A stretch of DNA of 60,226 nt, taken from a virus. The stretch is from IMG/VR virus record IMGVR_UViG_3300045988_163836; one strand, 5' to 3'. Below are positions 5,845-59,162 of the stretch, piece after piece. The notes under the pieces were generated by a model, which was given only the letters and a program-made list of their open reading frames with translations, was not told where the DNA came from and searched no databases. Positions within the stretch are counted from its first letter, which is position 1; the number at the start of each line of letters is the position of its first letter. Both the position numbers and the translations under genes were made by a program.

Positions 5845-6069
5845 ATGTTTGGTTTTGATGATAGTTATTTTCTGTTCATGAATGAAGCAGAGGGTACTGG
5901 AATGGTAAACACTCGTACTGGATGTATTAATACTCTGGTACGTAAGATGCAAGAAAATCCTCGATGGTATGTTGAGGAAAATTTTAATATTATGTGTGAA
6001 GAGTGCGGGATTGAGGATATCACACCTGCCGAAGAAGATATGGTATGGGAGATGTATAGTCGAGGATGA
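5845..6069 (+). CDS. small hypothetical protein
   Basis: Track ORF. Confidence 0.4.
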   Translation: MFGFDDSYFLFMNEAEGTGMVNTRTGCINTLVRKMQENPRWYVEENFNIMCEECGIEDITPAEEDMVWEMYSRG

Positions 6070-7682
6070 AAGCTTATTTAAAAGACATATGGCCGATGGA
6101 CAAGAAAAGAACTTATAGTCCAGTCTATGATGCCAAAGTTTATAATAAAGAAGCCTGGGAAAAGCTACTAGATGATTTTAACAAAAATGTTAAAGCCGGA
6201 GCTTATAATAAACTGCTTTATACTGATTGGAAAGTTCTCCATTTAATGGATGGAGACTATAAGGTAGTATGGTTTGAGATTAATAATACCTGTCTTGCTC
6301 CTACTATAGTCCATATTCAGGAATTTAAGTATTTAAAAGATTCAGATAATTTTAGAATGGTAGGTACTGATAAGAAGTATAATACTTCTGAAGATGATTA
6401 TTCATTTGGTACATATTTGGCCGATATGTTGTTCTATGATTATTTTGATTGGGTAGAAGCTGATGAAAAGGTAGATGATTATAGGCTATTTGGCTTAACT
6501 AATTTAGGAGCTTATAGTTCAGAGGACGGCATCGGTTGGCGTGCTATTAATTGGGCACTTAATCCCGCGGTGGAGGGTACAACTGGTCAAGTGATTTTTA
6601 ATGATGTAAAAAAAGATATAAAGAAGCTCAATTGCGAATTTAATAAGACTACTGAGATTCTTAATAATTGTTATAATAAAATTAACGAAAATACTGAATG
6701 GCTTAATAAAGTATATGAAAATGTAGATAAAGTAAAAAATACCACATTTTCTGATACGGCAACTATTAATGTTAGCCCTATTGATCCAGCTAAATTGGAT
6801 ATTAAAGATGAAACAGCTTCTACTGCGTCTGTTAGTATAGATTGGGGATATCGTCCAACCGCTTCTACAGCTAGTTCTATTACTGGCGAAAGTGTTATAG
6901 GGAAAACTATTGAAGTTAATGGTGATTCTGGTATTACTTATAATCCATATACTACAGCTACTGTTTCAATCTGTAATAGTTTAACTAGCCGTATTGATAC
7001 AATGGAAGAAAGAATTAATAAACTTGAAACAAACAATGATGATGTGAAAGGTAAAGGAAATAATATGAAGATGTTTAATTTTGATTTTGGTCCGATTAAG
7101 GATAATGATGCTGTTCGTATGTCGCCGTATGGTCTGGCGGTTAAGAATGTTAATGGCACATATCAGGCTTATGATAAGAAGAATGGCGAGATTATGGATG
7201 TTGATATTTTCAACTTTAAGGCTGATAATATGTTCTTCAAGATGCCTGTTGGCATTGACGCCATTGAAGCTGGTGATGTGATTATTTTCAACAGACGTCC
7301 GTGTTTTGTCTTTGGTTTCTCCGAGCAGGGTGATGTAATTGCAATTGATATTGCAATGGGTGAAAAGAAGACTATTATGCCTACAAAGTCTCCTTTTGGT
7401 AATTTTAGTTTTATTACTAAAATTGTAAGCCTTTTTGATAATATGATGGCTCCTCCTTCTAAAGACAACCCTCTGGGCAATATGTGGATGTTTACTCTTC
7501 TTGATGACAATAATAAGTCCATGAAAGATATTCTTCCTATGATGCTGCTTATGAATGGTGCAAATGGTATGACCGGTTTTAATCCTATGATGCTCTATCT
7601 TATGTCGGATAAGGCTGATGGTGATAAAGATTGGCTTCTGCCGATGCTTATGATGAATAATTTTCCGGGTAAGACTAATTAA
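6066..7682 (+). CDS. hypothetical protein, Met-rich C-terminus
   Basis: 538-aa intact ORF. Confidence 0.55.
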   Translation: MKAYLKDIWPMDKKRTYSPVYDAKVYNKEAWEKLLDDFNKNVKAGAYNKLLYTDWKVLHLMDGDYKVVWFEINNTCLAPTIVHIQEFKYLKDSDNFRMVGTDKKYNTSEDDYSFGTYLADMLFYDYFDWVEADEKVDDYRLFGLTNLGAYSSEDGIGWRAINWALNPAVEGTTGQVIFNDVKKDIKKLNCEFNKTTEILNNCYNKINENTEWLNKVYENVDKVKNTTFSDTATINVSPIDPAKLDIKDETASTASVSIDWGYRPTASTASSITGESVIGKTIEVNGDSGITYNPYTTATVSICNSLTSRIDTMEERINKLETNNDDVKGKGNNMKMFNFDFGPIKDNDAVRMSPYGLAVKNVNGTYQAYDKKNGEIMDVDIFNFKADNMFFKMPVGIDAIEAGDVIIFNRRPCFVFGFSEQGDVIAIDIAMGEKKTIMPTKSPFGNFSFITKIVSLFDNMMAPPSKDNPLGNMWMFTLLDDNNKSMKDILPMMLLMNGANGMTGFNPMMLYLMSDKADGDKDWLLPMLMMNNFPGKTN

Positions 7683-7749: not shown

Positions 7750-8657
7750 ATGCCAGCAAAGAAAGATTTAACTGGAAAAAGATTTGGTAGATTGTTAGTA
7801 GAATATGATACGGGTAAAAAAAATAGTTATAATCGTATTCTATGGCATTGTAAATGCGATTGCGGTAATGAACTTGATATATCAAGTGCTTCTTTAAATA
7901 GAGCTAAACCTACATAGTCTTGTGGTTGTTTACAAAGAGAAAAAACAAGAGAGGCTAATCAATCTGAAGATTTAACTGGAAAAGTTTATGGATATTTAAC
8001 TGTTTTACGACGTATGCCTAATAGTGCCTTATGGGAATGTCAATGTAAATGTGGTAATAAAGTGATAGTAAATACAAATCATTTAAATACAGGTCATACT
8101 AAATCTTGCGGATGCTATTAAAAAGAAAGAACTTCTGAAACATCTACTGTTAATTTAGTAGGTAAAAGGTTTGGATTATTAACTGTTATAAAATTAGATA
8201 CAGAAAAATCAATTCCTAAAATTAAATATTGGATTTGTCAATGTGATTGTGGTAATATAGTTTCAGTGAGAGGAAGTCATTTAAGTAGCGGTGACACTCA
8301 ATCTTGTGGATGTTTAAAAATATCTCATGGAGAATTAAAAATACAATAGATATTAGAAGAATATCATATCCCTTATGTAAGAGAAAAGAGTTTTGATGAT
8401 TGTATTAATCCTAAAACTAATAAAAAATTAAGATTTGATTTTTTTGTTGATAATAAATATTTAATTGAATATGATGGAATATAGCATTCTATAGATGCTC
8501 CTACAAAAAATTGGGGAGAGTCAATAGATGATATGCAATATAGAGACAATATAAAAACTCAATGGTGTAGAGATAATAATATTCCATTAATTAGAATACC
8601 ATATACGAAATATAAAGATTTAACAATAGATGATTTACTTTTATAGGAGCCTTGTTA
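7750..8657 (+). CDS. Zn-ribbon repeat protein with C-terminal Vsr/DUF559-like endonuclease domain; in-frame TAG codons and one in-frame TAA
   Basis: Three tandem GK(R/V)(F/Y)G-LTV...C-C-CG...SCGC repeats. C-terminus LRFDFFVDNKYLIEYDGI-TAG-H matches the Vsr-like motif. TAG at 7915, 8347, 8482 and 8643; TAA at 8119 sits between repeats 2 and 3. Confidence 0.5.
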
Positions 8658-8668
8658 AAGGCTCCTTA
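8643..8668 (+). terminator. terminator hairpin
   Basis: ggagcc ttgttaaa ggctcc followed by a T-run. Confidence 0.6.
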
Positions 8669-8732
8669 TTTTATTTTTATAAAAAAATATTATAAAATAT
8701 ATATATAAATTAAAGGGAAAAGGTGAATTAAA

Positions 8733-10397
8733 ATGACAGATTTGAGGACACTCATTCCAGAAGAAGAAAAGAATCTGCTGCATGATTATATTAAAGAGTA
8801 CCTTCATTCTGATAATTACTGCACTGTAGATGAAATTAATCATCTTCTGCGGTTTTGGGCTGCTGAAAAGCCTGACCTGTATGAGTTGCTTGGTAATAAT
8901 TTGATGGTCGAAGACCATATTTCCTATCAGGCATCTGGAGATGATTTGATGGATAAATTCGGTGAAATGTATGAAGAAATTTATAATAATCCTGAATTAG
9001 CAAACGTCAAAAAATTCATTGATTCTTACGAGCAAATTACTAATATTTATTATTCTTGGATGGATACCACTCTTGATAAAGATGAACGTGTTAATTGTTG
9101 TAGCATGATTGACCATTGCCTTGATAGTGAATCTCTCGTAGCCAATAAAAATGTATATATGTTTGATTGGGGTCGCAAATCTGTTGTTATTCGCCGTGGT
9201 CCGCATGCAGATACTTCGAAGCCGCTTGAGTTGAAGAGTGATATGAAGCTGATGCGAATGATGGCTAAAATTGTCGATTGGTTTGAGCTGGATAAAGAAG
9301 CATTTGAGCAGTTTCGTATTCTTCATTCGCGTGTTTTGAATGATCGTATGATTAATGCTGATATTGTACTCTCTATTCATCCGCTTGATTATCTTACTAT
9401 GAGTGATAATGCTTGTGATTGGGAGAGTTGTATGAACTGGTATCAGGGCGGTGATTATCGTCTTGGCACTGTTGAAATGATGAATTCTCCTGTCATCCTT
9501 GAAGCATATGTTGAATCCGAGCATCCTTATTGTCCTATTGACCGTGACAAAAGAACTTGGAGTAATAAGCGTTGGCGGTGTCTTTATATTGTTAATAAGG
9601 ATATTATCACTGAAATTAAGCAGTATCCTTATAACAATATTTATCTGCGTGATTATGTGCTGAATAAAATTAAGCAGTTAGCTGAACAGAATATGGGCTG
9701 GCATTACGACGATAAGATGTATGAGGTTTGGCAGAATCAGAGCAATGATACTGATTTTGGTCAGGTTTATATCCGCATGAGAACTGGAGCTATGTATAAT
9801 GATTATTATGATAATCATTATGCTTATATCAATCCAGAAGTAAAAGAAGTAGAAGTTTACTATTCTGGTGTAGCTGAATGTATGTGCTGCGGTAAAGGCT
9901 ATGAAGCTGATCCGAGTGGAAATGTAGATGCATTTGTAGAATGTGATAAAGTCGTATGTGCAACCTGTGAAGGCAAAGTCCAGTGTGATGATTGTGGCTC
10001 TTGGATTGATAGTGAAGATGCTTGGTTCTGTGAAGGGGACGGTGCAACTTATTGTAGCTGGTGTGCAGATGGCCGCACTCAGACTTGTAGCTGTTGCGGA
10101 GAAACTAAATGGCTTGATTATGATTTCAAGAAGCAGGCTCTTCCCTATATGTTTGAAGTAAAAACTCCTAATGGTAAGCATCGTCGTGATGTTGGAAATC
10201 CCATTGATGTCTGTGATGATTGTTATGAAGATTATGATTTTGGTGATGCACCGAAGGAGCCAGACTTGTGGGGCGATTTTCAGTATATTGATGTTGACAA
10301 GGCAGATAAAAAGGTATGGGAGCCATTTCTGTCCCTTGAAAGAATTGCTGATGCCAAGATGCGGCTAAAGGCGACTTATCCTGATGATTATGTTTAG
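8733..10397 (+). CDS. paralog family protein 1 (SIHPLDY...CMNW core, C-terminal CxxC Zn-ribbon array)
   Basis: Shares SIHPLDYLTMSDNACDWESCMNW...GTVEMMNSP with the ORFs at 14749 and 18988. C-terminus is rich in CxxC pairs. Confidence 0.6.
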   Translation: MTDLRTLIPEEEKNLLHDYIKEYLHSDNYCTVDEINHLLRFWAAEKPDLYELLGNNLMVEDHISYQASGDDLMDKFGEMYEEIYNNPELANVKKFIDSYEQITNIYYSWMDTTLDKDERVNCCSMIDHCLDSESLVANKNVYMFDWGRKSVVIRRGPHADTSKPLELKSDMKLMRMMAKIVDWFELDKEAFEQFRILHSRVLNDRMINADIVLSIHPLDYLTMSDNACDWESCMNWYQGGDYRLGTVEMMNSPVILEAYVESEHPYCPIDRDKRTWSNKRWRCLYIVNKDIITEIKQYPYNNIYLRDYVLNKIKQLAEQNMGWHYDDKMYEVWQNQSNDTDFGQVYIRMRTGAMYNDYYDNHYAYINPEVKEVEVYYSGVAECMCCGKGYEADPSGNVDAFVECDKVVCATCEGKVQCDDCGSWIDSEDAWFCEGDGATYCSWCADGRTQTCSCCGETKWLDYDFKKQALPYMFEVKTPNGKHRRDVGNPIDVCDDCYEDYDFGDAPKEPDLWGDFQYIDVDKADKKVWEPFLSLERIADAKMRLKATYPDDYV

Positions 10398-10476
10398 TTT
10401 AAATTCTTGCCAAAATTGAATACTCGAAAATTTATAAAAAATTTGATATAATATATATAGAAAGGATGGGAGAGAT

Positions 10477-14748: not shown

Positions 14749-16392
14749 ATGACACCTTATGAAGCATTAACGGCCCAAGATAAGAAATATATTACTGAAT
14801 ATATTGAAAAATGGGGTGGCATTAATTCCCCCGTTAAACTTAAAGCCCCTCTTGATTATATCCTTCGAGAATGGAATAAGAGTAAGCAAACTCTGTTTGA
14901 TATTTTTGGTGAAAAGTTAATGCTGGAGAAGGAAATCCAGGTTGAAGATGGAGATAATAAAAAAATAAGAGAAGTTAGTGAATATCTCTATAGTTTTAAT
15001 CCTGGTATTAATTTTATTAAGAATCTTCGTAAGTTATTTGAGCTTAATAATATTTATTTTGACGATAGTTATGCAACAAAACATGCAATATATAATTTAA
15101 TTCAAGCTTATCAACTTTTTACTAATAGAGTTGCTAAAGGATTTATTTATCATAATAAAGATGGTAAGGCAGTTAAAGTTCCAGAAGGAGCCAAGGTAAT
15201 GAAAGTTCTTCAAAAAATGGCTAAAGAATTTGATTTACCTGATTTTGAAATTTTCCGCAATCATATTTCACGTATTACCGAAGTACGCAAATCTAAAATC
15301 AAATTTACTCTATCTATTCATCCTTTGGATTATATGACTATGAGCGATAATGCAAATGGATGGGAAAGTTGTATGAACTGGACTCAAGGACCAGGAAGTT
15401 ATCGTGCTGGTACTATTGAGATGATGAATAGTCCATTAGTTGTTATAGCATATATTACTACTAAACCTTATTATCCAGCAAACACTTCTATTGAATGGAC
15501 TTCTAAAAGCTGGAGAGAATTAATTATTGTCCATCCGAATGCTATTTGTTCTGTAAAATCTTATCCTTATTATAATATTGCATTTGATAAAGCTCTTGTA
15601 AATTGGCTTGTTGATTTGGTTGAAGAAAAAACTGAATGGCGTTATAACAGAAAAAAGCCACAAGAGAGTTTGGAAAGTTGCTCTTATATTGGAGCTTGGC
15701 AAGATAAAGAAGATAAGAATAATCATTTTCTGTTGGATTTTGCAACAAATGAAATGTATAATGATTTTGGTAATACAGAGAATTATGGAATTTTTTCAAT
15801 TAATTCACCAAACAATAAATATCGTACATTTACAATTAATTATTCTGGTTTAATGACTTGTATGTGCTGCGGCGAGGATGCTTATTGGTCTGATGATACT
15901 GAAATGGTGGTTTGTGAAGACTGTGATCCACCCACTTATTGTTATTGCTGTGGCGAACGAGTTAATGCAAATGATGCAATTGAAGTAGATGGTGAATTGG
16001 TTTGCGAAGATTGTTATCATGATTTGCATAGATGCTTATGCTGTGAGGATGCTCATTTTGATGAAGATTTCACTACTGTATTTGTTGGACATATTGAAAA
16101 TCAAACTATTAATATTGATTATGATGAACATTATATTTGTAGTGAATGTCTTGCTAATAAAGAATATTTAAAGTATCTTGGAGATACTGATATTAGAGCT
16201 GAAACAATTCGATTGGATGGCGGTCCTTATTATGGTATGGTGGCTCTTTTAATTGAAGAAGATGATTTAAATGTAGAGGCTAAAAAGATAATTTCTAATG
16301 ATCCTTATTCTACTATAATTACTGATTATACTTATGCTATTCGTCGTTATCCTGAGCGTTTTTATAGTTACAATAGGTCAATCGCGATTTAA
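14749..16392 (+). CDS. paralog family protein 2
   Basis: SIHPLDYMTMSDNANGWESCMNW...GTIEMMNSP plus a C-terminal CxxC array. Confidence 0.6.
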   Translation: MTPYEALTAQDKKYITEYIEKWGGINSPVKLKAPLDYILREWNKSKQTLFDIFGEKLMLEKEIQVEDGDNKKIREVSEYLYSFNPGINFIKNLRKLFELNNIYFDDSYATKHAIYNLIQAYQLFTNRVAKGFIYHNKDGKAVKVPEGAKVMKVLQKMAKEFDLPDFEIFRNHISRITEVRKSKIKFTLSIHPLDYMTMSDNANGWESCMNWTQGPGSYRAGTIEMMNSPLVVIAYITTKPYYPANTSIEWTSKSWRELIIVHPNAICSVKSYPYYNIAFDKALVNWLVDLVEEKTEWRYNRKKPQESLESCSYIGAWQDKEDKNNHFLLDFATNEMYNDFGNTENYGIFSINSPNNKYRTFTINYSGLMTCMCCGEDAYWSDDTEMVVCEDCDPPTYCYCCGERVNANDAIEVDGELVCEDCYHDLHRCLCCEDAHFDEDFTTVFVGHIENQTINIDYDEHYICSECLANKEYLKYLGDTDIRAETIRLDGGPYYGMVALLIEEDDLNVEAKKIISNDPYSTIITDYTYAIRRYPERFYSYNRSIAI

Positions 16393-17908: not shown

Positions 17909-18907
17909 ATGGGTAAAAAAGTTTTAGTTCCTGAGTTTACTGAAAATTGTAGAGGGCTTTTGGAAGGACTATTCAAGATTAGCGAAGTAGGTCTTTTGAA
18001 AGCTCTTGGTGATTTTGTATCTAATAAATATTCTAATGTAGAGATTACAGAAGATTATGTATATGCTGAAGGCAATATTCCTGTTATGCTTATCGCACAT
18101 GTAGATACTGTATTTAGACAGCCAATTCGTCAATTTACTTATAATGAGAAAAGAGCTGTTTATAAAGGCAAGGAAGGTCTTGGAGCAGATGATAGAGCAG
18201 GTGTTTTTGCGATTATTCAGATTTTACGCAAAAAGTATAGACCTTATGTTCTTTTTACAACAGATGAAGAAATGGGTGGCTATGGGGCACATATATTTGT
18301 TGAAGAACATCCAGTAGCTCCAAATATTAAGTACATGATTGAGCTTGATAGAGCTGGTGAAAGAGATTGTGTCTTCTATGAGTGTGAAAATTTTACGTTC
18401 ATGGATTATGTTGAAAGTTTCGGCTTTAAGCAAGCAATTGGATCATTTACAGATATTAGTATTATTATGCCTGAATGGGAAATTGCCGGAGTAAATTTAT
18501 CAGTTGGCTATCATCATGAACATACTCAAAATGAAGATTTGCATATTAGAACATTGTATAATACAATTAATAAAGTATGTAAAATGCTTGATGATATCGA
18601 AAATGCAGATAAATATAAATTTATTCCTAGCAAGGAATATCTTCAGTGGATTACATTAACTAATAAATATCATATGCCTTATGATTTTGATGATGATAAA
18701 CTTCTTAATTGTAGTTTTTGTAATCAGTTATATTATGAGTGGGAAGATTTTCCTCTTGATATTGATGGAGTAAAGGTCCATGTATGTCCTGAATGTTTAG
18801 CACTTGATCCTAATATTCATCAATGTGAAAGATGTTATAATTTATTTTATTCAAATAATATGAAAGAAAGAGTATGTAATAAATGTCGAGTCCCTATTGT
18901 AATTTAA
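17909..18907 (+). CDS. M20/M28/M42-family metallopeptidase-like protein with C-terminal Zn-ribbon
   Basis: Motifs IAHVDTVF, GADDRAG and FTTDEEMGGYGA; C-terminal CxxC...CxxC. Confidence 0.5.
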   Translation: MGKKVLVPEFTENCRGLLEGLFKISEVGLLKALGDFVSNKYSNVEITEDYVYAEGNIPVMLIAHVDTVFRQPIRQFTYNEKRAVYKGKEGLGADDRAGVFAIIQILRKKYRPYVLFTTDEEMGGYGAHIFVEEHPVAPNIKYMIELDRAGERDCVFYECENFTFMDYVESFGFKQAIGSFTDISIIMPEWEIAGVNLSVGYHHEHTQNEDLHIRTLYNTINKVCKMLDDIENADKYKFIPSKEYLQWITLTNKYHMPYDFDDDKLLNCSFCNQLYYEWEDFPLDIDGVKVHVCPECLALDPNIHQCERCYNLFYSNNMKERVCNKCRVPIVI

Positions 18908-18987
18908 ATGAAATTAAAGAACAAGTAAAGAAGGTTATTGCCTATTCATAGGGGCTGGATATTAACCTTTTAAATATTGATAAATTA

Positions 18988-20310
18988 ATGAATGATTGGG
19001 AAGAGAATAAATGCAAATTTTATAGCAGGCTTCCTGGTAATAAATTAATTTATCAAAGCCATGCACCTATTACAATGTCTATTTCAGAAGATGATAAAAA
19101 AGCTGAATTAGATTGTTTTATTGACAACATTCGTTGGCGTTATGGCTTATTTGAATTAAGAGATTTTGTTGAAAATAATAGAAAAGATTTTTATAATAAT
19201 ATTTTAAGCGAAGATTATCCAATGAATAATGGAACTATCATTCCAAAAGGAATGAAAATAATTAAAGCATTTAAATATTTTGTAGAAGATAAGGAAATTC
19301 TTACTGAAATACAAGATAAAGCCAGTATGCTCATTCAGAATACAAAAATTAGTGGATATTTTTGTATGTCAGTTCATCCATTGGATTATCTTAGTTTAAG
19401 TGAAAATACGCATAACTGGCGGTCATGCCATGCACTTGATGGAGAATATCGGGCTGGTAATTTATCTTATATGGCAGATAATTGTACAATTATATGTTAT
19501 ATTAAGAGTGAACATGACGCAGTTTTACCTAGATTTCCAGATGATGTGCCATGGGTGGATAAGAAGTGGCGTATGCTTCTTCATGTGTCTGATGATGATA
19601 CTATGGTTATTTCAGGTCGGCATTATCCTTATGAAAGTAAAGGATTACAAGATTTTGCTCTTGAACTGTATGAAACATTTTTCGGGCAAGGATACCGTTT
19701 TACTGATTGGTGTCATGAAAAATATAATACATTTACAATAAATGATAAAATTTTTTCTAATGAAGTTCGTTTATTGCCTACGGGATACGTAATGACCCCA
19801 GATATTAAGGTTATTGTTGACCCAAAAAATCCTTTGCATTACAATGACCCTCTTCATTCTACTGTATATGACTATTGGTTTAGTATTGCTTATAGTGAAC
19901 CTTATTGGCATGAAGAAGGTATTCCACAAGATAAGTTAATTCTTCCAAGAACTCGTACCACTACTAAAGTTAATATAGGACATGATGTAAAATGCTGTAT
20001 TTGTGGTAAAAATGATTGTGTTTTAACAGATACAATGCTTTGTATTGATTGCGAACTTAAATATGGTACAGAAGAAACAGAAGATTTTACTTTCTGTAGA
20101 GAGTGCGGTAGACGTATTTATATTCCTGAAGCAATATCATTAGATGATGATGATGGTTATGTATGCCGTAGTTGCGGAGACAATTATTAGATATGTGATA
20201 ATTGTAATATGTATTATGATAAAAAAGATTTAATTTATGATGAAGAAAACAATGCTTACTATTGTGAAGCTTGTTATGATGAAATTTTATTTGATAGGGA
20301 GAATGAATAA
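18988..20310 (+). CDS. paralog family protein 3 (TAG read-through at 20188)
   Basis: SVHPLDYLSLSENTHNWRSC core. Reading TAG as Gln extends the CxxC-rich C-terminus to TAA 20308. Confidence 0.55.
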
Positions 20311-20725: not shown

Positions 20726-21007
20726 ATGAAGAAGATTATAATTCCTCAAGAAGAAGTAAATTATCTTTAGAAATTAAATTATGAAATTGAAGCTAGAAAA
20801 AATTTATGTCAATTTTTAATTAGACAAAATATTAGAAATAAAGCTTTTGATGATTATCATAATGAGTATATAGAATTATTTGCTGAATATGAATTAGCTA
20901 AATTAGAATTAGAAAATAATTATATCAAACCAGAAATTGGGAATCAAACTTGCAATTGGAATTTAGATTTTTATACAAATGAGGTAATTATTGATGTTAT
21001 TTCCTAA
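20726..21007 (+). CDS. small protein upstream of rSAM (RiPP accessory candidate)
   Basis: ORF with one TAG, overlapping the rSAM start. Confidence 0.4.
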
Positions 21008-22334
21008 AATAAGCCACATTCCTGAAGAATTTTCTGATTTTATAGGTCGTTTATATCCTGAAGATTGTTTAAATTCTTAGTCCGTATTTACATTAACATT
21101 TTAGGTTACAGATGATTGTTGTTTAAATTGTACTTATTGTTATCAAGGGCATAAAGGTAAACATAAATTATCTTTTGAAACAGCTAAACAGATGATTGAT
21201 TAGATATTAACCAGAGATAATAAAATTATTGGTTATATTGATTCTTATAAAATACCAGGAGTAATAATAGAATTTATAGGTGGAGAGCCATTTTTAGAAA
21301 TTGAATTAATTGATTAGATTACTGATTATTTTATTAATAAAATGATTGAATTGCGGCATCCTTGGGCTACTAAATATAAAATTTCAATTAGTTCTAATGG
21401 TATTTTATATTTTGAACAAAAAGTACAAGAGTATATTAAAAAAAATAATGAAAATTTAAGTTTATCAATTTCTATTGATGGAAATAAAAAATTACATGAC
21501 GCTTGTAGAGTTTTCCCTGATGGTAGTGGTAGTTATGATAAAGCATTGTCTGCCGCATTACATTATAGTCATAATTATAATAAATGGATTGGGAGTAAAA
21601 TGACTATCTCTCCATTTAATATAGATTATTTATATGACGCTGTTTTAGAAATGATAAACAATGGTTATAGTCAAATCAATCTAAATTGTGTGTATGAAAA
21701 AGGTTGGGAACTTAACCATGCCACTACATTATATTATTAGTTAAAAAAAATTGCTGATTATTTATTAAATAATGATTTGTGGGATAAAGTTTATTTATCT
21801 ATTTTTTATATTAATGATGGAAGTAAAAATTTATCTAATGATAATTGGTGTGGCGGGAATGGTCGTATGTTAGCCTTAAATTGGAAAGGTAAATATTATC
21901 CATGTTTACGTTATATGGAAGATAGCATAAGTAATCAGCCAGAATATTATATTGGAGATATTTATTAGGGAATAGGCCAAGATAATTTAACCATCAATAG
22001 ATTAAAAGATTTATCTGAAATAACAGTTATTAGTCAATCTCCTCAAGAATGTTTAGATTGTGAAATTTCTGGAGGATGCTCTTGGTGTACAGCTTATAAT
22101 TATCAAGAAACAGGTAATGTTAATAAAAGAGTTACTTATATTTGTGATATGCATTATGCTACAGTTCTAGCTTCTTTATATTATTTAAATTCTATTTTAA
22201 AAAAAATAAACTCGAATAAACGATTTAAATTTAATGGAGATAGGGAAAAAGCATTAAAAATTATCTCTTAGGATGAATATAATATAATAAAGGAGACAAT
22301 GACAAATGAAAATAGGAACGACAATAACTTCTGA
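20994..22334 (+). CDS. radical SAM / SPASM-domain peptide-modifying enzyme (8 in-frame TAG)
   Basis: CLNCTYC CX3CX2C cluster, GGEPFL, and a C-terminal SPASM-like CLDCEISGGCSWC...C..C. The track shows only a 132-aa fragment because of TAG codons. Confidence 0.7.
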
Positions 22335-22956
22335 TAGATTCAATGAATTAAAGAAAAAAATAAAGGCTGAATGTTTACGTCGTAAATATACCGGTAGTGT
22401 AAGTTCATATGGAGGGACTTCTTATGATTATACTACTTAGCCTGATAATGGAAAAGTTATTTCAAAAGAACACATAACAAAACTGGTAGAACCTATGGCG
22501 GCAATAAATATTGAAAATCAGAATGAAAATATAAATGTTATTAAAGATGATGATTTAAGTACATTAGAGGCAAAAATTACAGCTTATCAAGCTATGGGAT
22601 TAACTGATTCGAATACTGGATGTTCAGCTTATTGCACTGGATTATGTTCTACCAGTTGTAGCGAAAGTTGTGGAGTACAATGTTAGGGAACTTGTTTAGG
22701 TAGTTGTAAGAATACTTGCCAAGGAGGTTGTCAAAACACTTGCAGAGGCGGATGTCGAAGCAGTTGTAGTGGTAGCTGTAGCGGATGTAGTGGTTCTTGC
22801 TCAGGTGGATGCTATACAGGATGTAGTGGATGCAGTGGTAGCTGTACAAGACATTGTGCTAACGATTGTACTGGATTGTGTGGAGGAAGTTGTTCAGGTT
22901 TATGTAAAAGCTGTACTGGCACATGTAGTGGCACAGGTAGAAATGAACCATTATAA
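22306..22956 (+). CDS. Cys-rich repeat peptide/protein (candidate rSAM substrate), 2 TAG
   Basis: 216 aa with a Cys-poor N-terminal half, then about 40 Cys in G/S-C-x2-3-C repeats. Lies immediately downstream of the rSAM-SPASM gene with an SD. Confidence 0.55.
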
Positions 22957-23987: not shown

Positions 23988-24078
23988 AGTATAAAAAGTC
24001 TTGGGTAAATTTCTTAATTTGAAAAAATTAAAAAAATATAATATAATATATAAGTAATCAATAAGAAATTAAATAAAT

Positions 24079-24226
24079 GGGGTCGTGGCCAAGCGGTAAG
24101 GCCGGCAACTTATCCAAGATTAGTTTAAATGGTAAAATAGTCTATGCGCAAGAAAGATGTGAGTTCAAACCTAACATTTTGGGCCAAATTGCCAAATCGT
24201 TGGTTCGAATCCAACCGGCCCCACCA
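24079..24226 (+). tRNA. tRNA (Gln-like D-arm) with about 78-nt ORF-less intervening sequence in the anticodon loop
   Basis: Acceptor ggggtcg/cggcccc, D gcc-aagcggtaa-ggc, anticodon stem ggcaa...ttgcc, T gttgg-ttcgaat-ccaac, a-cca. Insert helix ccaagat/attttgg is adjacent to the anticodon stem. Anticodon is ambiguous (UAU, UCA or CCA depending on splice position). Confidence 0.55.
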
Positions 24227-25575: not shown

Positions 25576-26139
25576 TTGCCAAAAGCCTTAGATTTAACGA
25601 ATAAAGTATTTGGAAATTTAAAATGTATTTAGAAAGCTCCTACTAGAAATAAAAAGACTTATTGGGAATGTGAATGTTTATTATGCGGAACTCATAAAAT
25701 TATTTAGACTTGTCATTTAACAGATGGTAGAACTACAAGTTGCGGGTAGCATAATGAAAATAATCTTTTTAATATTAGCAAAGAAAAGCAATGCTTAATT
25801 TGTGGAGAAAAGTTTATAACTAATAATCCTAAAAGAAAATATTGTTTTAATTGTTCTCCAGACAATATATCAGCAGCTGACCGATTAAGACATATCAAAA
25901 GAATTATTAAACATAAATTAATAGTATATAAAGGCGGAAAATGTGAAATTTGTGGTTATGATAAATGTGAAGGAGCTTTATAGTTTCATCATTTAAATCC
26001 GCAAGAAAAAGAATTTACAATTTCTCAAGTAAATTTAAATGAAGGTGAATTTTCTTTTGAAAATTTATTAAAAGAAGTTGATAAATGTTAGTTATTATGT
26101 GCTAATTGTCATGCTGAACAACATTATAAAATTGAATGA
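25576..26139 (+). CDS. HNH homing endonuclease (TTG start, 5 in-frame TAG)
   Basis: CxxC...GAL-TAG-FHHLNP...DKC-TAG-LLCANCHAEQH. TAG aligns with Gln of NFQLLCPNCH in the 59479 HNH gene. The stop overlaps the start of tRNA-Lys. Confidence 0.65.
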
Positions 26140-26212
26140 TGGTGTGGCCTAGTGGTAAGGCACCTGCCTTTTAAGCAGGGTACCGAGGGTTCAAATCCCT
26201 CCACCATCACCA
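26138..26212 (+). tRNA. tRNA-Lys (UUU)
   Basis: gatggtg..gcc-tagtggtaa-ggc..cctgc-cttttaa-gcagg-gtacc-gaggg-ttcaaat-ccctc-caccatc-a-cca. Confidence 0.85.
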
Positions 26213-26745: not shown

Positions 26746-27302
26746 GCGGGATTAGCTCAGCTGGTTAGAGCGTTTGGTTTACTCGGCAAACTCTTTTAAT
26801 TTCTATTTTATGACACGAAATTCTAAAGAAGTCGGTAATTTAGCAGAATTACAATGTATTACTGGTCTTTATGAACTGGGATGTGATATTTCATTTCCTT
26901 TTGGAAATAGTCAAAAGTATGATTTAATTATGGATTATAAAGGTAAACTTTATAAAGTTCAAGTTAAACATGCTAAAGATGAATATACATTAGGAGAAAT
27001 TACACATTTTTCTTTTGCTACGAGATGGCAAAGTCATAATACGACTGGTTATAAAAAAACTCCATACACAAAAAATGATATTGATTTTTTCGCTACTTAT
27101 CACCAAGGAAAAGTTTATTTAATTCCTGTTGAAGAATGTAGCGGAGCTACTAAATCTATTCGTTATACCCCCCCTAAAAATGGACAACGAATTGGTATTA
27201 ATTTTGCTCAAGATTATTTGGCGGAGGAGGTGTTGAAGAAATTGTAAGAGCATTGCTAAGTAATCCAAGAGGTCATTGGTTCGAATCCAATATCCTGCAC
27301 CA
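26746..27302 (+). tRNA. tRNA-Val (UAC), anticodon loop interrupted by a 482-nt ORF-containing intervening sequence
   Basis: 5' exon gcgggat ta gctc-agctggtta-gagc g tttgg tttac (Val-like GAUUAGCUCAGCUGG). 3' exon from 27265: ccaag aggtc attgg-ttcgaat-ccaat atcctgc a cca. Junctions form an extended helix ttact/agtaa + ggcaa/ttgct. Confidence 0.7.
26810..27247 (+). CDS. intron-encoded Hjc/PD-(D/E)xK-like nuclease (paralog A)
   Basis: MTRNSKEVGNLAELQC...YDLIMDYKGKLYKVQVK matches Hjc-like ERExx...D-x-x-A...(E/Q)VK. Fills the tRNA-Val intervening sequence with about 27 nt 5' and about 17 nt 3' non-coding. Paralogs at 56076 and 57052. Confidence 0.65.
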   Translation: MTRNSKEVGNLAELQCITGLYELGCDISFPFGNSQKYDLIMDYKGKLYKVQVKHAKDEYTLGEITHFSFATRWQSHNTTGYKKTPYTKNDIDFFATYHQGKVYLIPVEECSGATKSIRYTPPKNGQRIGINFAQDYLAEEVLKKL

Positions 27303-28812: not shown

Positions 28813-28883
28813 CATAGAACTTGATGGAGCGTTCTATTAGTCTGATGCCTGCATTAGATTAAGTTTTATAACCATCATACTTG
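28813..28883. repeat. structured leader element, copy 2
   Basis: catagaacttgatggagcgttctattagtctgatgcctgcattagattaagttttataaccatcatacttgg. Confidence 0.6.
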
Positions 28884-28957
28884 GGGACATAGTTTATGGT
28901 AGGAAAACGTTGAATTTAATTCAAAGTCGAGGGTGCGATTCCCTCTGGCTCCACCAT
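28884..28957 (+). tRNA. noncanonical tRNA, anticodon arm ttgaa-tttaa-ttcaa (possible anticodon UUA)
   Basis: ggggaca ta gttt-atggtagga-aaac g ... agtc gaggg-tgcgatt-ccctc tggctcc a cca. The loop is 5 nt, or 7 nt (atttaat) if the last stem pair opens. Confidence 0.45.
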
Positions 28958-44953: not shown

Positions 44954-46946
44954 GGTGAATAAAATAAATTAGTATAGAGATGGACCTACTAGAGCATTTT
45001 GGCCTACAGTTTTTGATGGATTTGAATTAGAAATTCATTTAGTAGACCATTGCAACTTACAATGTAATAATTGTAATCATTTTTCTCCTTTGGCTTCTCC
45101 ATTTTTTATTACTTACGAAGATTTTCAAAATTAGCTAAAATTAGTAAAAAAAACTTTGCCTTCTATTAAAGTTTTAATGCTATTAGGGGGAGAACCATTT
45201 TTACATCCTAATTTAATAGAATTATGTTAGATAGCTAGAAATATTCTCCCAGAGATAGAAATAAAGATATTAACTAATGGTATAATTTTAAATAATTATG
45301 ATACAAAAAAATTAAAAAAATTAGAAGAATTAAATATACATATAAGTATTTCTAAATATCCTAATCAAGACTACAAAGATTTTAGCAATAATAAAAATAT
45401 CTCATATTTAAATGATAGATTTTTCTTTGATTAGACATTGGTTGACCCTTTAGGTAAACAAGATAATAAAACTCGTATATATAGTTGTCCAAATAGGATT
45501 CCTTGCTTTACATTAAAAGATTTTAAAATATATTTTTGTCAGTTTGGGGCACACATAAATAATTTTTGTAATTATTTTTTTAAACAAATTCCATTAATAG
45601 AAAATAAAGATTTTATAAAACTAACAGAAAAAACAAATTTACAAGATTTATAGAATTTAAAATTATGTGAAAAAAATATATGTAAATATTGTCGGCCAGG
45701 AGATGTGGTTGATTGGGATCAATCGACTAAAACTTATGATGAATATACTAAAACAGAAAAAGAATTATTCTTAACAAATTATAATGAATATTATAAAAAA
45801 TTTGTTGATTTTTCTAATTTTTAGGATTTTTCAAAAAAGAAATCTTGGAATAACGTTGATTCTTGGTATGCTCCTGATAAAATGAGGACATTTAGAAAGC
45901 GCAACGAAGGAAAAATTGATATTATAATTCCTTTTTATACAATAAATAAAATATATTTTTAGAAATGTTTAGATTCTGTCTTTAAACAAAGTATTATTAA
46001 TGATTGTGTAATCTATTTAATTAGTGATAATTCTCCAGATAAAAAATATGTATATGAATTTTATAAAACTTATAATAATATATACAATATAATATTATTA
46101 GATACTTAGAAAACTAAATCAGGCCCTGCATCAGCTAGGACTCTAGGAATTAATAATAGCTTCAATAAGTATTTTTTCTGTTTAGATAGTGATGATTATT
46201 TTTATGATAATAAGGCTTTAGAAAATTTATATATATATGCTGAAAATAATAATTATGGAATTGTAAATGGATAGACCTATGATAAAAATGAATTTATCCA
46301 TGACGCTCATAGTTATTTATATAATAGAGAATTTTTTATAAAAAATAATTTTTCTTATGGCAAATTTATTTATAATGAAGATAGATTTTTATCATTATAG
46401 ATTTTTGATTTTTATAATGGTGCAATTCCCTTCTTAGAATAGCCTATTTACGTATATAATAGAAATAATGAAAGTATGGGTAAAGATATTAATTTTTTAT
46501 ATATGACAATAAATGAATTAATTGTTTTTACTTATTTTTATAGACAATATTTAACAAATAAAAAATATGAAAATAATCATTTTATTTTCGAACATATTTT
46601 TAATAAAATTATTGTAAATTTATCTATAATAGAAGAAGTAACTGATAAAGACAAAGAATATCTAAAAGATATAAAACAAGAAGAAGCAATTTGTTTAAGT
46701 CTTATTTGTTTAATTTTAATTAATGATAAAATTTTGTTTAATAAGTTATCATTGTTTTATAAAGATTTATTAAATAAAATAAAAAAAGAAGATTTTATTA
46801 AATTAAATAATACTGTATTATTTAATTTAAATAGTCTATTTAATAAAGGAAATCATATACTTGATAATAATAAACTAATTAAACAATTTATTAACAAAGA
46901 GTATATTGATTTTATAAAATACGAGGAGGAAAAATATGGCAATTAG
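44954..46946 (+). CDS. radical SAM domain fused to family-2 glycosyltransferase (about 12 TAG)
   Basis: HCNLQCNNCNH (CX3CX2C), LLGGEPFLHP; GT2 motifs ISDNSPDKKY and CLDSDDYFYD (DxD). Probable GTG start. Confidence 0.55.
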
Positions 46947-47451
46947 TTCAAACTCTAAAATAAATTGGAGTGATATTTAGACTATTTTTACTAATTTAAA
47001 TACCGCAAGAAAAAAATTTTTCCCTAGTTAGAGTGATTTTCAAGCGACTCCTGGAGGATAGTCAACACAAGCTATGGCTCAATTAGCTCAGAATTTAAAT
47101 AAGTATATAGAATCTTTTTCCAGTAGCAGTTATGTTGGTTCAAGAGCAAATATTAGTGAAAATCCTCCTTCGGCAGGAGATTTAATTAGTCCTATTATTT
47201 TTAATAGATTTACTACTACAATTAGAAGCATAAATGATACTTGCGCTCATGATGCGAGTTATAATGCTAGCCATAGAGGTAGTGGATATAATAGTAGTTG
47301 GGATAGTTCTGATTATGGAGCAGGATGGGATACTTCTTATAATTCTTCTCATGATGGTTCAGGTTATCATTCTTCCTATTGGTCAGGGGTTAATCAAACC
47401 TGGTGTTCATCTCATGGATGCTCTAGTCATTACGGTTCTAGGCACACTTAA
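46936..47451 (+). CDS. Ser/His/Tyr/Gly-rich small protein (candidate modification substrate)
   Basis: 171 aa with 3 TAG; C-terminal half is low-complexity: SYNASHRGSGYNSSWDSSDYGAGWDTSYNSSHDGSGYHSSYWSG. Confidence 0.45.
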
Positions 47452-47471
47452 CATTTAAAGGAGAAAAAGGA

Positions 47472-48905
47472 ATGAAATATATATCGGATTTTTCAATAGA
47501 AGAATTATCTATTATTGGAGCTTGTGGATGTAATTTAAATTGTAAATATTGTCATTCAGCTTAGGCTGTAAATGAATATAGTAAATAGTTACAAGAATAG
47601 ACTATAAAGGCTCTTAAAGATGGAAGTTATTTATAGAATATTAAAAATGTTATGAAAAAATTAGAAGTTGATCCATTAAATATCCATAAAATAAGTTTTT
47701 GGGGTCAAGAACCTACATTAGTATTAGAACATTTTACTAAAAATTTAAAAGATTTTTTTGAATTATGTCCCAATATTAATGAATTTTTTACTTCTACTAA
47801 TGGTATGGCTAATACTGATAAAATAATTGATTTTTTAAAAACTTTTGATAATTTAACTAAAAAACATTCATTTATTTGTATTTAGTTTTCTTATGATGGA
47901 GATTATAGTACTGATAATGTAAGAAGAGCTAATTCTAAAGTAGTATATAATAATTTAAAATATTTAATAGAAACTTTAAATACAATTCGTTTTAATAATA
48001 TTACTATTGCTCTTAATACTCATGGAGTTATTAGTAATGAACTCATAAATCATTTTAATAATAATTACAAAGAAATAGAATAGTATTTTATTTAGGCTAA
48101 TGAAAAAATTCAATATTTAACTAATTTAAATCTAAATAAATCTGTTTTTATCAAAAATACTATAAATTTCTCTAGCGAATTACCTATTAATACTTCTAGC
48201 ATTGATGGTATTAATTGGAGTAATTTTATAAAAATTTGTAAATCAATTGGAGAACATTATCCAGAAATTAATAATCCAGATAAAGACTCTATTGAAGGAT
48301 TATTGTGTTTACCTCGAAAAGCAAAAAAATTTTTATTAAAAAATTTGGAATGTTCTAATTTAGATGAAGCTCTTGATAAAGTTTTAGCATTCTCTAATAA
48401 AGAATTAAAGAATTATAATAGAAACTTAACTCCATTCTTATATTGCGGAGAAAAAACAGGAAGCTTAAAACTTTTATATGATGGAACATTAGTAAATTGT
48501 TAGAGTTCTCTTTATGATACTAATCCAGAATATATTAATACTAATGATAAAATTGGGATTATTAAGCAATTTGCCGCAAATCATCATAATTATATAAATC
48601 CATTGAAAGATAAAGATGAAGATATAAAAAATTGTTGTTTTTTATTTGAAACTTTATCTGTATCTAGTTTTTTTTATGTATATAATTAGATTGTTTCTTT
48701 ATTATGTAATTTACGAGAAGTGCATTAGATAAGTCAAAAATTTAATGATGATAAATTTTTAATGAAAGCAGCATTATTATTAGTACCTATACATTCTTGC
48801 TTTTTTAACAGTTTAATCAGTACTGGTTCTTATTTCTTTAGAGATAGTGGATTTTTAAGAAGATATTGTAATGGAATTATTGAAGAAGTTTTGGAGGAAA
48901 AATAA
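47472..48905 (+). CDS. radical SAM / SPASM-like enzyme (multiple TAG)
   Basis: GACGCNLNCKYCH, GQEPTL; Cys-rich C-terminus. Confidence 0.55.
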
Positions 48906-50275
48906 TGATAACAACGTCTATTGATTTCCAATAGGAAGAAAATATTCTATTTTAGAATTTTATTTTTAATCATGAATTAAAAAAGATGGAAAATGAAATA
49001 TTAGAATTAATTATAAGACAAGACTGTAATCAAAAATGTGATTATTGTTATATAACTAATTATGGCAAAGAATTATATCCAGAACATTTTTCTAATTCTT
49101 AGATATTAGATAATTTAAAATTATTATTAGATTATTTTGATAAAAAACAAATAAAACCTTTAGAATGGTCATTATTCGCCGGAGATTTATTTTATGATGG
49201 ATTAATTTTTGAAATACTAGATGTATTTTTTCCGTATTTAAAAAAATGGTATGAATTTGCTTATAAAATAAAAGAAAAAGGTAAACTAGTAATACCTACT
49301 AATGGTAGTTTTATTTCTGATAATGAAAAAGTAATAAAAATAAAAAAATATATCCAAAAGATGAAAGATATAAATGTAGAAATTCATTTTTCATTTTCTA
49401 CTGATGGGCCGTATAGCACTGAATTTAGAGAACATAAAGATTTAAATGATGAATATTTTAATAAATTATTTGAATTTGCTACAGAAAATAATGATGGCTT
49501 CCATCCTATGATTTCTAGCCAAAATGTTGATAAAGCCATTAAAACTTATGATTGGTTTAAAAAGAAATTAAAAGAATACAATTCATGGTAGAAAACTCCT
49601 TATATGTTAGAAGTTCGAAATAATAATTGGACTCAAGAATCTATAGAGAATTATAAAAAATTCTTAAAACATATCTTTGAAGATAGATTGAATGATTGCA
49701 ATAATGATATTAATACTATGGCTTATGCAATGTTTAAAGGGGATGGGGCTAATAATACTCCTACATTTAATGAGCACAATGGAGATCCTATACGATTAAT
49801 GAATTTATCAGATAAAGAAGACAGACATAACCGAATAAGCTGTGCATTGTAGTCTACTGTCCATATAAGGGTTGGAGATTTAGCTATCGTTCCTTGTCAT
49901 CGTACTTGTTATAATCATTTAATTGGTGGACATTTTAAAATAAATGATGAAAAAACAGAGATAATTGATTTAATAAGTGATAATGCCACAGCTTATATAG
50001 GAATGAAATCTTTTAACCCTGTTTATGCTCCAAGATGTTTAGAATGCTGGTGTAGAGATGTCTGTATTAAAGGATGTTTGGGAGCTTAGATAGAAACTTA
50101 TGGTGATTTTTCTATCCCTTGTTTATCAGTTTGTAATTTATTTCAAGAAAAATATAATTATTTATTTAAATTATATTTTGAAACTGGAGTTTTGAAAAGT
50201 GCGAAAGATCAAAAAATATTACCAAAAGTAATAGAAAACATAGCTATAGAATTGGGGTATGATTTAAATGGATAA
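48905..50275 (+). CDS. radical SAM / SPASM-domain enzyme (multiple TAG)
   Basis: RQDCNQKCDYCY; C-terminal CHRTCYNH...CLECWCRDVCIKGC. An alternative start is ATG 48986. Confidence 0.55.
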
Positions 50276-50527
50276 TTTAGATAATATTTTAAAAGAAATT
50301 ACAAATAATATTATAAAAGAAAATAAGGGATATATGGATTTATTATTTGTTATATACAATAATATGGTTACTTTAGAAGAACCAAATCCAGAAGTCAATA
50401 AAAAAATAATTTATACCTTAGCAAATTTATTATAGAATTAGGATTTACGACTAAAAGATTTAAATATAGATTATTCAAAAGAATTAAATAAATTAACAAA
50501 TTAGCTATATTCTATAGGAGAATAAAA

Positions 50528-51376
50528 TTGATTAAATTTACCTTACCTGATTTTTACTATTTTCATACTGTAAATGATAAATTTATTAATTTATCAAGAA
50601 GCCATACTAATTGGCTTCTTGATAAAAACATAGTTTTTTCCTATATTAGAGGGACATTCCCTTATAATATTTGGAATGGAGGATTAAATAACATGGTTGG
50701 TGATACTTTATTGTATCCTAATATAGAATTAATAATTAAGCAAAGTAATTTACCTTTGTGGTTAGATTTTTCTAATATTTTATTAGAAAAATCAGATTTC
50801 TATGATGTAATGAGTAATGTAATTTTAAAATTATTACCAAATAATTGCATTTTTGAAATTAGTAATTTAGATTTATTAAATTATATAAATAACAAATTTC
50901 CTAATTTGAAATATGTTATTTCTAAAAATGCTAATATCTTATATCCTCTTACTCCCGATATTATAAATAATTTTCATCAAAATTTAAATCCATTATATAT
51001 AATAATCCCTAACGAGTTTAAAACTTCACAGCAATATTTAAATGAAATTAATAATAAAGAAAATATTATAATTCCAGTTAATAATCTTTGTAATCCAAAA
51101 TGTAAAAATTATTTTCAATGTCCAATAGTAGAAAATAATAATATATTAAATTATACATTTGAACCTACATTTTGTAATTGTAAAAATTCTATAAATAATA
51201 AACAATATATAACGATTAAAGAAATTAAAGATATTTATATCCCTATGGGTATCACTAATTTTTTAATAGATTATTTCTCTAACAATGAAAATGAATACGG
51301 TCTATTTTTAATTAATTATTTTATTAAACCAGAATTTAAAGAATATGCCTTTCAAGAATTATTTATAAGGAGATAA
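50528..51376 (+). CDS. paralog triad member A (unknown function)
   Basis: MIKFTLPDFYYF...WNGGLNN; paralogous to 51387 and 53695. Confidence 0.5.
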   Translation: MIKFTLPDFYYFHTVNDKFINLSRSHTNWLLDKNIVFSYIRGTFPYNIWNGGLNNMVGDTLLYPNIELIIKQSNLPLWLDFSNILLEKSDFYDVMSNVILKLLPNNCIFEISNLDLLNYINNKFPNLKYVISKNANILYPLTPDIINNFHQNLNPLYIIIPNEFKTSQQYLNEINNKENIIIPVNNLCNPKCKNYFQCPIVENNNILNYTFEPTFCNCKNSINNKQYITIKEIKDIYIPMGITNFLIDYFSNNENEYGLFLINYFIKPEFKEYAFQELFIRR

Positions 51377-51386
51377 AATATAAGTA

Positions 51387-52914: not shown

Positions 52915-52916
52915 CT

Positions 52917-53663: not shown

Positions 53664-53694
53664 TAAAAAGTAAAAAATATTATATAATTTAAAT

Positions 53695-59087: not shown

Positions 59088-59162
59088 TCCGGCTTTGGGT
59101 AACGGTTAGCTCAGCTGACTCTAAATCAGCAAGTCTCAGTTCGACTCTGAGAGCCGGTGCCA
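59088..59162 (+). tRNA. amber suppressor tRNA (anticodon CUA), glutamine-type identity
   Basis: tccggct tt gggt-aacggtta-gctc a gctga-ctctaaa-tcagc aagt ctcag-ttcgact-ctgag agccggt g cca. Loop CUCUAAA; weak 1-72 pair (U-U) and G73, as in tRNA-Gln. Confidence 0.8.

Follow-up and report, generated by a model that had tools for sequence, protein, structure and literature searches.

A tRNA gene at positions 24079-24226 of a 60,226-nucleotide (nt) stretch of viral DNA (IMG/VR record IMGVR_UViG_3300045988_163836), here called the window and forming part of a large phage genome, is interrupted in its anticodon loop by 73 nt that themselves make up a complete tRNA-like cloverleaf ending in CCA (Table 1). 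This feature was missed in the initial annotation, which had described the gene as an interrupted tRNA with an insert of the same layout as those in three other tRNA genes of the window. The locus is very probably a tRNA-Ile(UAU) gene that carries a tRNA-shaped mobile insert. Removal of this module at the RNA level is, on the sequence evidence, the somewhat favoured outcome. That the module is an intron excised by proteins rather than by a ribozyme, with RNase P, a tRNA 3'-end endonuclease and a ligase as the predicted enzymes, is the explanation that we tentatively prefer; taken alone, the specific route through these three enzymes is possible and a little more doubtful.

The Rfam tRNA model (RF00005; cut-off 29 bits) gives 24079-24223 a score of 46.6 bits; the match runs end to end over model positions 1-71, and its alignment places 76 inserted nt in the anticodon loop. 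ARAGORN with introns allowed returns a tRNA at 24079-24226 with an insert of 73 nt. Both programs uphold the annotation of an interrupted tRNA whose acceptor, D and T arms are intact. The anticodon stem halves named in that annotation (GGCAA, 24104-24108; TTGCC, 24189-24193) are present and lie 80 nt apart, not about 78. The helix CCAAGAT/ATTTTGG likewise exists and closes the insert, but it does not abut the anticodon stem as had been stated: the two are kept apart by unpaired bases, five 5' of the insert helix (CUUAU) and six 3' of it (GCCAAA). The D arm GCCAAGCGGTAAGGC is identical on alignment to that of the tRNA-Gln at 56919 and the T arm nearly so, as the earlier description of a Gln-like D arm would have it; the acceptor stem is different. 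The promoter and leader were also correctly described as common to both genes. The 24-nt leader ATATAAGTAATCAATAAGAAATTA occurs in exactly two copies in the window (24048 and 56878; none expected in shuffles), and the same leader precedes the orthologous genes of five related phage loci (L022 and L024-L027). An exact-match search of IMG/VR with the window's 5' exon gave no match, and this Gln-like outer body was seen nowhere else.

Scanned alone, the insert matches the Rfam tRNA model at 24114-24183 (31.8 bits against the gathering cut-off of 29; E = 1.2e-5 for that search), with its anticodon arm essentially unaligned. The match is not seen in a scan of the whole window because a higher-scoring outer match overlaps it. 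At a lowered threshold only, ARAGORN places a 73-nt tRNA at exactly 24114-24186, and the best anticodon arm that it finds has three pairs, two mismatches and C at position 37. The insert does not have the 5-bp anticodon stem, the 7-nt loop with U33 and the purine at position 37 of a functional decoding tRNA, and with so degenerate an arm it is therefore not itself a decoding tRNA. Its other features would suit an RNase P substrate, namely 11 of 12 stacked pairs, U8, A14, G18 and G19, the T loop TTCAAAC, G73, CCA and U at position -1. In a chance test, the 12 pairs (seven in the acceptor and five in the T stem) were scored as the best of 32 combinations of register and tail length. A score of at least 11 of 12 was reached by 0.45% of loop shuffles and by 1.7% of segments drawn at random from the window; of 20,000 such segments, 2 had this score and also an NCCA tail and a TTCRA T loop. 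The stability of the insert's fold gives no signal relative to shuffles (z = +0.51).

A search with the small open reading frame (ORF) just downstream of the gene led to 15 phage loci. The same 73-nt insert occupies the same site in 5 of these 15 and in 5 metagenome contigs found by an insert-specific pattern. The body of the outer tRNA differs in all ten relatives, where it is of a typical Ile type (GCTCTCGTAGCTCAATTGGTCAGAGC...), yet their leader, trailer, anticodon arm and insert are orthologous to those of the window, which suggests that anticodon arm and insert may be exchanged as a unit between tRNA genes. In an alignment of six sequences, pairing in the nested double cloverleaf amounts to 93%, whereas slid partners give 33-51%. 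Both bases have changed in seven of the pairs, most of which belong to the outer tRNA and one to the acceptor stem of the insert. The fifth pair of that stem varies compatibly among relatives (G.U, G-C, A-U).

Excision of 24114-24186 leaves the 7-nt loop CUUAUAA, with anticodon UAU followed by A37 and A38, and places the insert between U36 and A37. Intron-less phage tRNA-Ile(UAU) genes contain GAGCCGGCGACTTAT/AATCGCCAGATG, the junction (/) being the same as in the exons of the relatives' interrupted alleles, and uninterrupted phage tRNA-Ile(UAU) genes carry ...GAGCCGGCGACTTATAATCGCCAGATG..., which equals the relatives' exons joined at the predicted position. A shift of the insert by one base in either direction breaks this match. 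The predicted spliced junction reads ...GGCGACUUAU/AAUCGCC... in the relatives and ...GGCAACUUAU/AAUUGCC in the window, whose anticodon stem differs from those of the relatives and the intron-less genes by one compensated pair (A-U here, G-C there). Because the junction is unique and intron-less alleles exist, the host gene is, as read from the DNA, tRNA-Ile(UAU). The initial annotation had allowed UAU, CCA or UCA; insert boundaries and intron-less alleles together fix UAU and rule out Trp(CCA), which is the ARAGORN call, the opal-suppressor UCA and also Leu(UAA).

The architecture is not confined to this gene. An unsupervised register scan for a 7-bp acceptor with a tail of 1-4 nt and a directly preceding 5-7-5 T arm recovers it in seven families of phage relatives (Ile-73, Lys-58, Lys-735, Glu-863, Glu-875, Asn-65 and Sup-77) and in an eighth, the tRNA-Tyr of a Lak phage; five of the eight end in NCCA. 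Across 11 sequences of the seven families, acceptor and T arm are 94.7% paired, compared with 30-51% in slid controls, and 10 of 12 pairs are changed on both sides. Removal of the insert gives a 7-nt loop with a sensible anticodon in every one of the eight families. The Lys-58 module scores 30.4 bits with the Rfam tRNA model, above the cut-off, though it has no anticodon arm, and the Sup-77 module, a minihelix-like acceptor plus hairpin with an ACCA end, falls below the cut-off. Modules that bear an ORF hold the HNH gene between D arm and T arm, with the stop codon in the T stem. The Lys-58 and Lys-735 genes have a common anticodon arm and different bodies, as is the case for the window and its ten Ile relatives.

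The ends of the 73-nt insert align without gaps to those of the HNH-bearing Glu-863 insert of L024 (21 of 30 bases identical at the 5' end, 25 of 34 at the 3' end), and its AGAAAGATGTGAGTTCAAAC is the counterpart of GAAAAGATATAAGTTCAAAT, the final codons and stop of the Glu-863 HNH ORF. The element thus looks like an ORF-less derivative of an HNH-bearing one, so that the decayed relic of the initial annotation stands in part, with a different parent from the one named there. The window itself holds an uninterrupted tRNA-Lys (26138-26212; loop CUUUUAA) whose exons are near-identical to those of the L003 gene, with one D-loop difference, and by this comparison it is the intron-less allele of the HNH-bearing Lys-735 gene of L003. 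As in families of mobile (homing) introns, there are endonuclease-bearing relatives and presence/absence alleles at identical sites, and the family is therefore mobile.

Two further observations touch on this family. The Bacillus phage SDFMU_Pbc (L028, OQ884030.1 37096-37671), cultured on B. subtilis, encodes a homologous HNH ORF (34% identity, E = 1e-27) flanked by a tRNA-like 5' part (acceptor and D arm) and by a T arm and acceptor 3' strand, and could serve as an experimental model. In the related phage L012, adjacent tRNA genes at 1362-1487 and 1494-1613 have anticodon-loop inserts of 52 and 38 nt that have the motif AACAGCAAGTTT in common and are not tRNA-shaped; they may be a further small insert class.

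The boundaries of the inserts fall at tRNA position +1 and, in five of eight families, at CCA, the points cut by tRNA-processing enzymes, and this leads to a model of excision by RNase P and a 3'-endonuclease. RNase P would recognize the nested acceptor/T-arm stack and CCA and cut at the 5' end of the module, leaving a 3'-OH on U36; a tRNA 3'-end endonuclease of the RNase Z or RNase E type would cut directly after CCA, leaving a 5'-phosphate on A37. With such ends the exon halves, kept together by the outer acceptor and anticodon stems, would be directly ligatable, and an ATP-dependent RNA ligase of the T4 Rnl1 kind could seal them in the loop to give a tRNA-Ile(UAU) that would read AUA. The base at -1 is U, the base preferred by bacterial RNase P, in five of eight families including Ile-73. 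An Rnl1-type ligase gene adjoins the tRNA array of L012 (11336-12235; the only match by tblastn with T4 Rnl1 and Rnl2), and a profile search finds such ligases in 283 viral contigs, some of which have intron-less Ile(UAU) genes. Also encoded in the window are an RlaP nucleotidyltransferase, a metallophosphoesterase and a protein with an AAA_33 (P-loop kinase-type) domain that has a weaker PHROG match to polynucleotide kinase. One-step cleavage directly after an encoded CCA has precedents in T. maritima RNase Z, as cited in PMC7479834, and in E. coli RNase E, which cuts directly after CCA on proline tRNAs (PMC5291269).

Several results weigh against this model or against a working outer tRNA. 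Three of the eight families have no CCA and end 1-3 nt past the acceptor, and the tails of two of these, UA and GCU, misfit a cut directly after the discriminator. In many bacteria RNase Z is usually inhibited by CCA (see PMC7479834). The 5' exon and the tRNA-like module of the Lak-A1 Thr(UGU) and Tyr genes have a spacer of 28-31 nt between them, so that RNase P by itself cannot define the 5' exon end in these genes. No RNA ligase gene was found in the window, either with Pfam and PHROGs on about 30 ORFs or by tblastn with T4 Rnl1 and Rnl2, and the five insert-bearing viral contigs are not among the matches listed for the Rnl1-type ligase (80 of 283). In stability the fold of the 148 nt does not stand out from shuffles (z = -1.07). 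By energy the module favours another fold over the cloverleaf (minimum -10.8 kcal/mol; cloverleaf -5.8 kcal/mol), its T stem has a conserved G.A or A.A mismatch, and one co-change (G5 to A with C29 to U) is equally compatible with an alternative hairpin. The identity set of the E. coli-type bacterial isoleucyl-tRNA synthetase comprises A73, C4-G69, U12-A23 and C29-G41. The Ile-type body of the relatives has all four elements, and the window's outer tRNA keeps A73 and C29-G41 but has G4-C69 and C12-G23 in place of the other two. Since its body is unlike that of the relatives and lacks C4-G69 and U12-A23, charging of the window's tRNA is uncertain.

Some of these points would suit a selfish insertion that is never spliced, the outer tRNA being dead or merely a folded leader and trailer and the products being a tRNA-like RNA and two tRNA halves. 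The ligase searches of the window are in keeping with it, excision and rejoining are known here as predictions, and RNase P with 3' processing would free the module whether or not the exons are rejoined. The locus-bearing genomes are also closely related (a neighbouring protein is 96-100% identical and the metagenome tRNA loci are near-identical), so conservation by itself proves little. Such an insertion would not, however, explain why the outer cloverleaf is perfect in two widely differing bodies and its acceptor, D, anticodon and T stems show compensatory changes, nor why the loop and anticodon are restored in all eight families. The hosts include Lys, Glu and Asn tRNAs and an amber suppressor, the latter presumably needed by a TAG-recoded phage; AUA codons are frequent, yet the window showed no second Ile(UAU) gene, and the module, with its degenerate anticodon arm, would not replace the outer gene in decoding. 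We therefore judge an unspliced insertion unlikely, while keeping it in view. The enzymes might also be others than those proposed: a dedicated splicing endonuclease of phage or host could recognize the nested L-shape and make both cuts, after which phage kinase, phosphatase and ligase would heal and seal the ends. The variable 3' tails and the Lak spacers, which misfit a pure RNase P/RNase Z scheme, speak for such an enzyme, as do the AAA_33 protein, the metallophosphoesterase and the RlaP protein, whose match is to an 'RNA repair pathway' nucleotidyltransferase. Yet no candidate endonuclease was identified, the junctions have no bulge-helix-bulge geometry on sequence inspection, and the kinase and phosphatase domains are of generic kinds that phages often have for other purposes; a dedicated endonuclease appears improbable.

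According to the initial annotation, the insert might be a decayed copy of the element in the window's Val, Pro and 'Tyr' tRNA genes; on this reading it would be removed in the same way, through a shared junction helix near the anticodon stem. All four inserts do have a long-range helix linking their ends near the anticodon loop, and the Pro insert reaches 10 of 12 in the same acceptor and T-arm hairpin test (7 of 12 for Val and for 'Tyr'). None of the three has a T arm or CCA. The inserts of tRNA-Val(UAC) (26746-27302) and tRNA-Pro(UGG) (56014-56569), 480 and 479 nt long, are nearly filled by ORFs for PDDEXK_5 (I-Ssp6803I-type) endonucleases rather than HNH proteins, contain no T loop, and form helices that include exon (anticodon) bases; intron-less alleles of both genes occur in L001 and L002. 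The supposed Tyr gene (59262-60085) has exons identical to an uninterrupted tRNA-Leu(UAA) in L002 and is by that criterion tRNA-Leu(UAA). Its 736-nt insert contains an HNH ORF, ends in G and lies between U34 and A35, the position classic for group I introns. The ends of the 73-nt insert have no sequence similarity to those of the Val, Pro and Leu inserts, and its true ORF-bearing relatives are HNH-containing, tRNA-shaped inserts of other phages. Identity with the Val, Pro and 'Tyr' elements is thus largely refuted, and descent from them has little probability. A self-splicing group I-like ribozyme or an archaeal-type bulge-helix-bulge intron would have the same anticodon-loop position, and the 5' exon ends in U as with group I introns. 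At 73 nt, however, the insert is far below the size of a group I core (about 200 nt) and its last base is A where a group I intron has G; the Rfam scan reports tRNA and nothing else, without a group I match at E up to 10, and on these grounds a group I intron is rejected. No Rfam match to a group I core was obtained in the Leu(UAA) insert either, even at E up to 1, and the roughly 25 and 13 non-coding bases left in the Val and Pro inserts are far too few for one. Inspection of 24104-24120 and 24176-24193 likewise rejects a bulge-helix-bulge intron: there are no 3-nt bulges flanking a 4-bp helix, and the 5' splice site lies at the base of the 7-bp helix and the 3' site 4 nt beyond it, without a symmetric bulge pair. 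Bacteria are not known to have the EndA splicing endonuclease. We give a ribozyme or bulge-helix-bulge origin almost no weight.

The window is low in GC and has a one-sided GC skew. ARAGORN reports 14 uninterrupted tRNA genes and the Rfam tRNA model one more at 28883-28953. In-frame TAG codons are widespread in long ORFs (for example, 10-12 per ORF of 667-909 codons) and there is a tRNA with anticodon CUA; the phage therefore decodes TAG as sense. TAG and AUA usage climb together, both being low at 1-20.6 kb and high at 20.7-24 kb and 44-55 kb, with 10 AUA per 1000 codons in the TAG-poor block against 22-40 in the TAG-rich blocks (2-4-fold). All three intron ORFs of the window are without TAG. 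The related contigs are 80-240 kb long and stem from human-gut metagenomes; a search among INPHARED phages gave no close relative of this region.

Rfam also identifies ROOL and RAGATH-33 RNAs. The tRNA cluster encloses the ROOL RNA (57604-58197, 323 bits), which has tRNA-Gln on one side, the suppressor tRNA on the other and two interrupted tRNA genes nearby; a free-standing PDDEXK_5 ORF (57052-57477) stands between tRNA-Gln and ROOL, and the RAGATH-33 RNA (60099-60211) begins 13 nt downstream of the Leu(UAA) gene. Elsewhere in the window, four big paralogous ORFs (6045-7682, 8733-10451, 14749-16392 and 18883-20310) have in common the motif HPLDY..S.N...W.SC...G.YR.G and C-terminal zinc-ribbon clusters; Pfam has no family for any of the four, and PHROGs match just one of them, with an unknown function. 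ORFs that are TAG-rich and very AT-rich are clustered at 20991-22334 and 44955-54570. By the look of their sequences, several of these resemble radical-SAM/SPASM-type proteins and one a glycosyltransferase, and a small Cys/Gly/Ser-rich protein (22306-22956) adjoins one ORF of the cluster. Together, these genes may be a peptide-maturation cassette.

Table 1. Features of the interrupted tRNA-Ile(UAU) locus, the amber suppressor tRNA gene of the window, and related tRNA-shaped inserts in other phages (insert boundaries marked by ^; module in square brackets)
Feature	Location	Strand	Basis or details
Promoter-like site, sigma-70-type TTGAAA-17-TATAAT	24019..24047	+	11/12 consensus positions; consensus match only
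Leader (24 nt), in common with tRNA-Gln(UUG) copy at 56878-56901	24048..24071	+	Two exact copies in window
5' exon of tRNA-Ile(UAU): acceptor, Gln-like D arm, anticodon stem 5' strand (24104-24108), loop C32-U36 CUUAU	24079..24113	+	Rfam, ARAGORN; junction set by intron-less alleles
tRNA-shaped insert, 73 nt	24114..24186	+	Rfam tRNA model on insert alone; ARAGORN relaxed; structure counts, covariation
Insert acceptor, 7 bp, CCAAGAT / ATTTTGG	24114-24120 / 24176-24182	+	
Insert U8 A9	24121-24122	+	
Insert D arm, GTTT-AAATGGTA-AAAT	24123-24138	+	A14, G18, G19, A21 in place
Insert anticodon-like arm	24140-24158	+	Degenerate
Insert T arm, GTGAG-TTCAAAC-CTAAC	24159-24175	+	Directly before acceptor 3' strand
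Insert discriminator G	24183	+	
Insert CCA	24184-24186	+	
3' exon: A37 A38, anticodon stem 3' strand (24189-24193), variable loop, T arm, acceptor 3' strand, A73, CCA	24187..24226	+	Rfam, ARAGORN
tRNA with anticodon CUA (amber suppressor)	59088-59162		Window
Lys(UUU), insert 58 nt	L001, L005		CUUU^[GUGGGAU...AUUCCGC-A-CCA]^UAA
Lys(UUU), insert 735 nt	L003, L018, L027		HNH ORF; CUUU^[GAUUUAG...UUAAAUC-A-CCA]^UAA
Glu(UUC), insert 863 nt	L024		HNH ORF; UUUUC^[GUUAGAU...AUUUAAC-A-CCA]^AU
Glu(UUC), insert 875 nt	L010		HNH ORF; without CCA
Asn(GUU), insert 65 nt	L009		End = discriminator
Amber suppressor (CUA), insert 77 nt	L014, gene 8562-8713		CUCU^[GGGGCGA...CGCUCC-A-CCA]^AAA

Protein-dependent tRNA splicing is regarded as archaeal and eukaryotic, and bacterial tRNA introns are regarded as group I ribozymes. 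The inserts described here could conceivably be a third kind of tRNA intron in phages, a mobile tRNA-shaped element that hijacks RNase P and a 3'-end endonuclease and whose exons are rejoined by a phage RNA ligase, although we hold this to be rather less than probable. If it is true, a tRNA-shaped intron would be a new and very economical answer for a mobile element that lands in an essential RNA gene, and the RNA ligases of large phages would have a routine job beyond repair. Since one insert sits in an amber suppressor (L014), ligase-dependent splicing could time both the recoding switch and the supply of AUA-reading tRNA in infection, a hint of how suppressor and rare-codon tRNAs in general might be scheduled. 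The tRNA annotation of recoded phages would also need correction, as standard tools miss such genes or call them Trp or stop-reading.

Modules excised by RNase P and RNase Z are familiar as tRNA-like processing signals, as in mitochondrial tRNA punctuation, plant t-elements, MALAT1 mascRNA and synthetic tRNA-gRNA arrays. Their flanks are not rejoined, whereas the flanks in the window are halves of another tRNA and would need ligation. T4 Rnl1 seals broken tRNA anticodon loops in infection, and here too a phage ligase would seal an anticodon-loop break with the halves held by the tRNA fold. In the T4 repair by Pnkp and Rnl1 (reviewed in PMC3400036) the break is made by a host anticodon nuclease and the ends must be healed; the cuts proposed here would be made by processing enzymes and leave ends ready for ligation. 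The insert resembles group I introns of bacterial and phage tRNA anticodon loops, such as those of tRNA-Leu(UAA) and of tRNA-fMet with I-Ssp6803I (PMC13011429), in its site, in the frequent homing-endonuclease ORFs, in presence/absence alleles and in ORF-less derivatives. Group I introns, however, are self-splicing, about 200 nt or longer and end in G, and the window insert is a 73-nt, tRNA-shaped element with a CCA end and no ribozyme core. Archaeal and eukaryal tRNA introns, spliced by EndA and RtcB (PMC4090602), also lie in the anticodon loop and depend on proteins, as is proposed here, and some archaeal ones carry homing endonucleases; they need a bulge-helix-bulge and EndA and yield 2',3'-cyclic phosphate and 5'-OH ends, and neither the motif nor EndA is present here.

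The closest known case is that of the Lak megaphages, TAG-recoded gut phages whose tRNAs are interrupted in the anticodon loop by introns described as "enigmatic", with a "possible tRNA" noted inside one of them (Devoto et al., preprint 10.1101/356790). A tRNA-like module was confirmed here in three Lak inserts, those of Thr(UGU) and Tyr in Lak-A1 and that of Tyr in Lak-B1, and the excision model, if correct, would explain these introns. The Lak inserts have a 28-31 nt spacer hairpin before the module and no CCA, whereas the window insert is the module alone, from +1 to CCA; the preprint describes neither a mechanism nor HNH-bearing versions nor a common architecture. Apart from it, full-text literature searches found no description of tRNA-shaped introns or of such a mechanism. 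The locus is thus a variant of a kind that had been glimpsed before and left unexplained, and what appears to be new is that these inserts have an architecture in common, that the boundaries lie exactly at +1 and CCA and that there are HNH-bearing relatives and empty alleles, together with the model of enzymatic excision.

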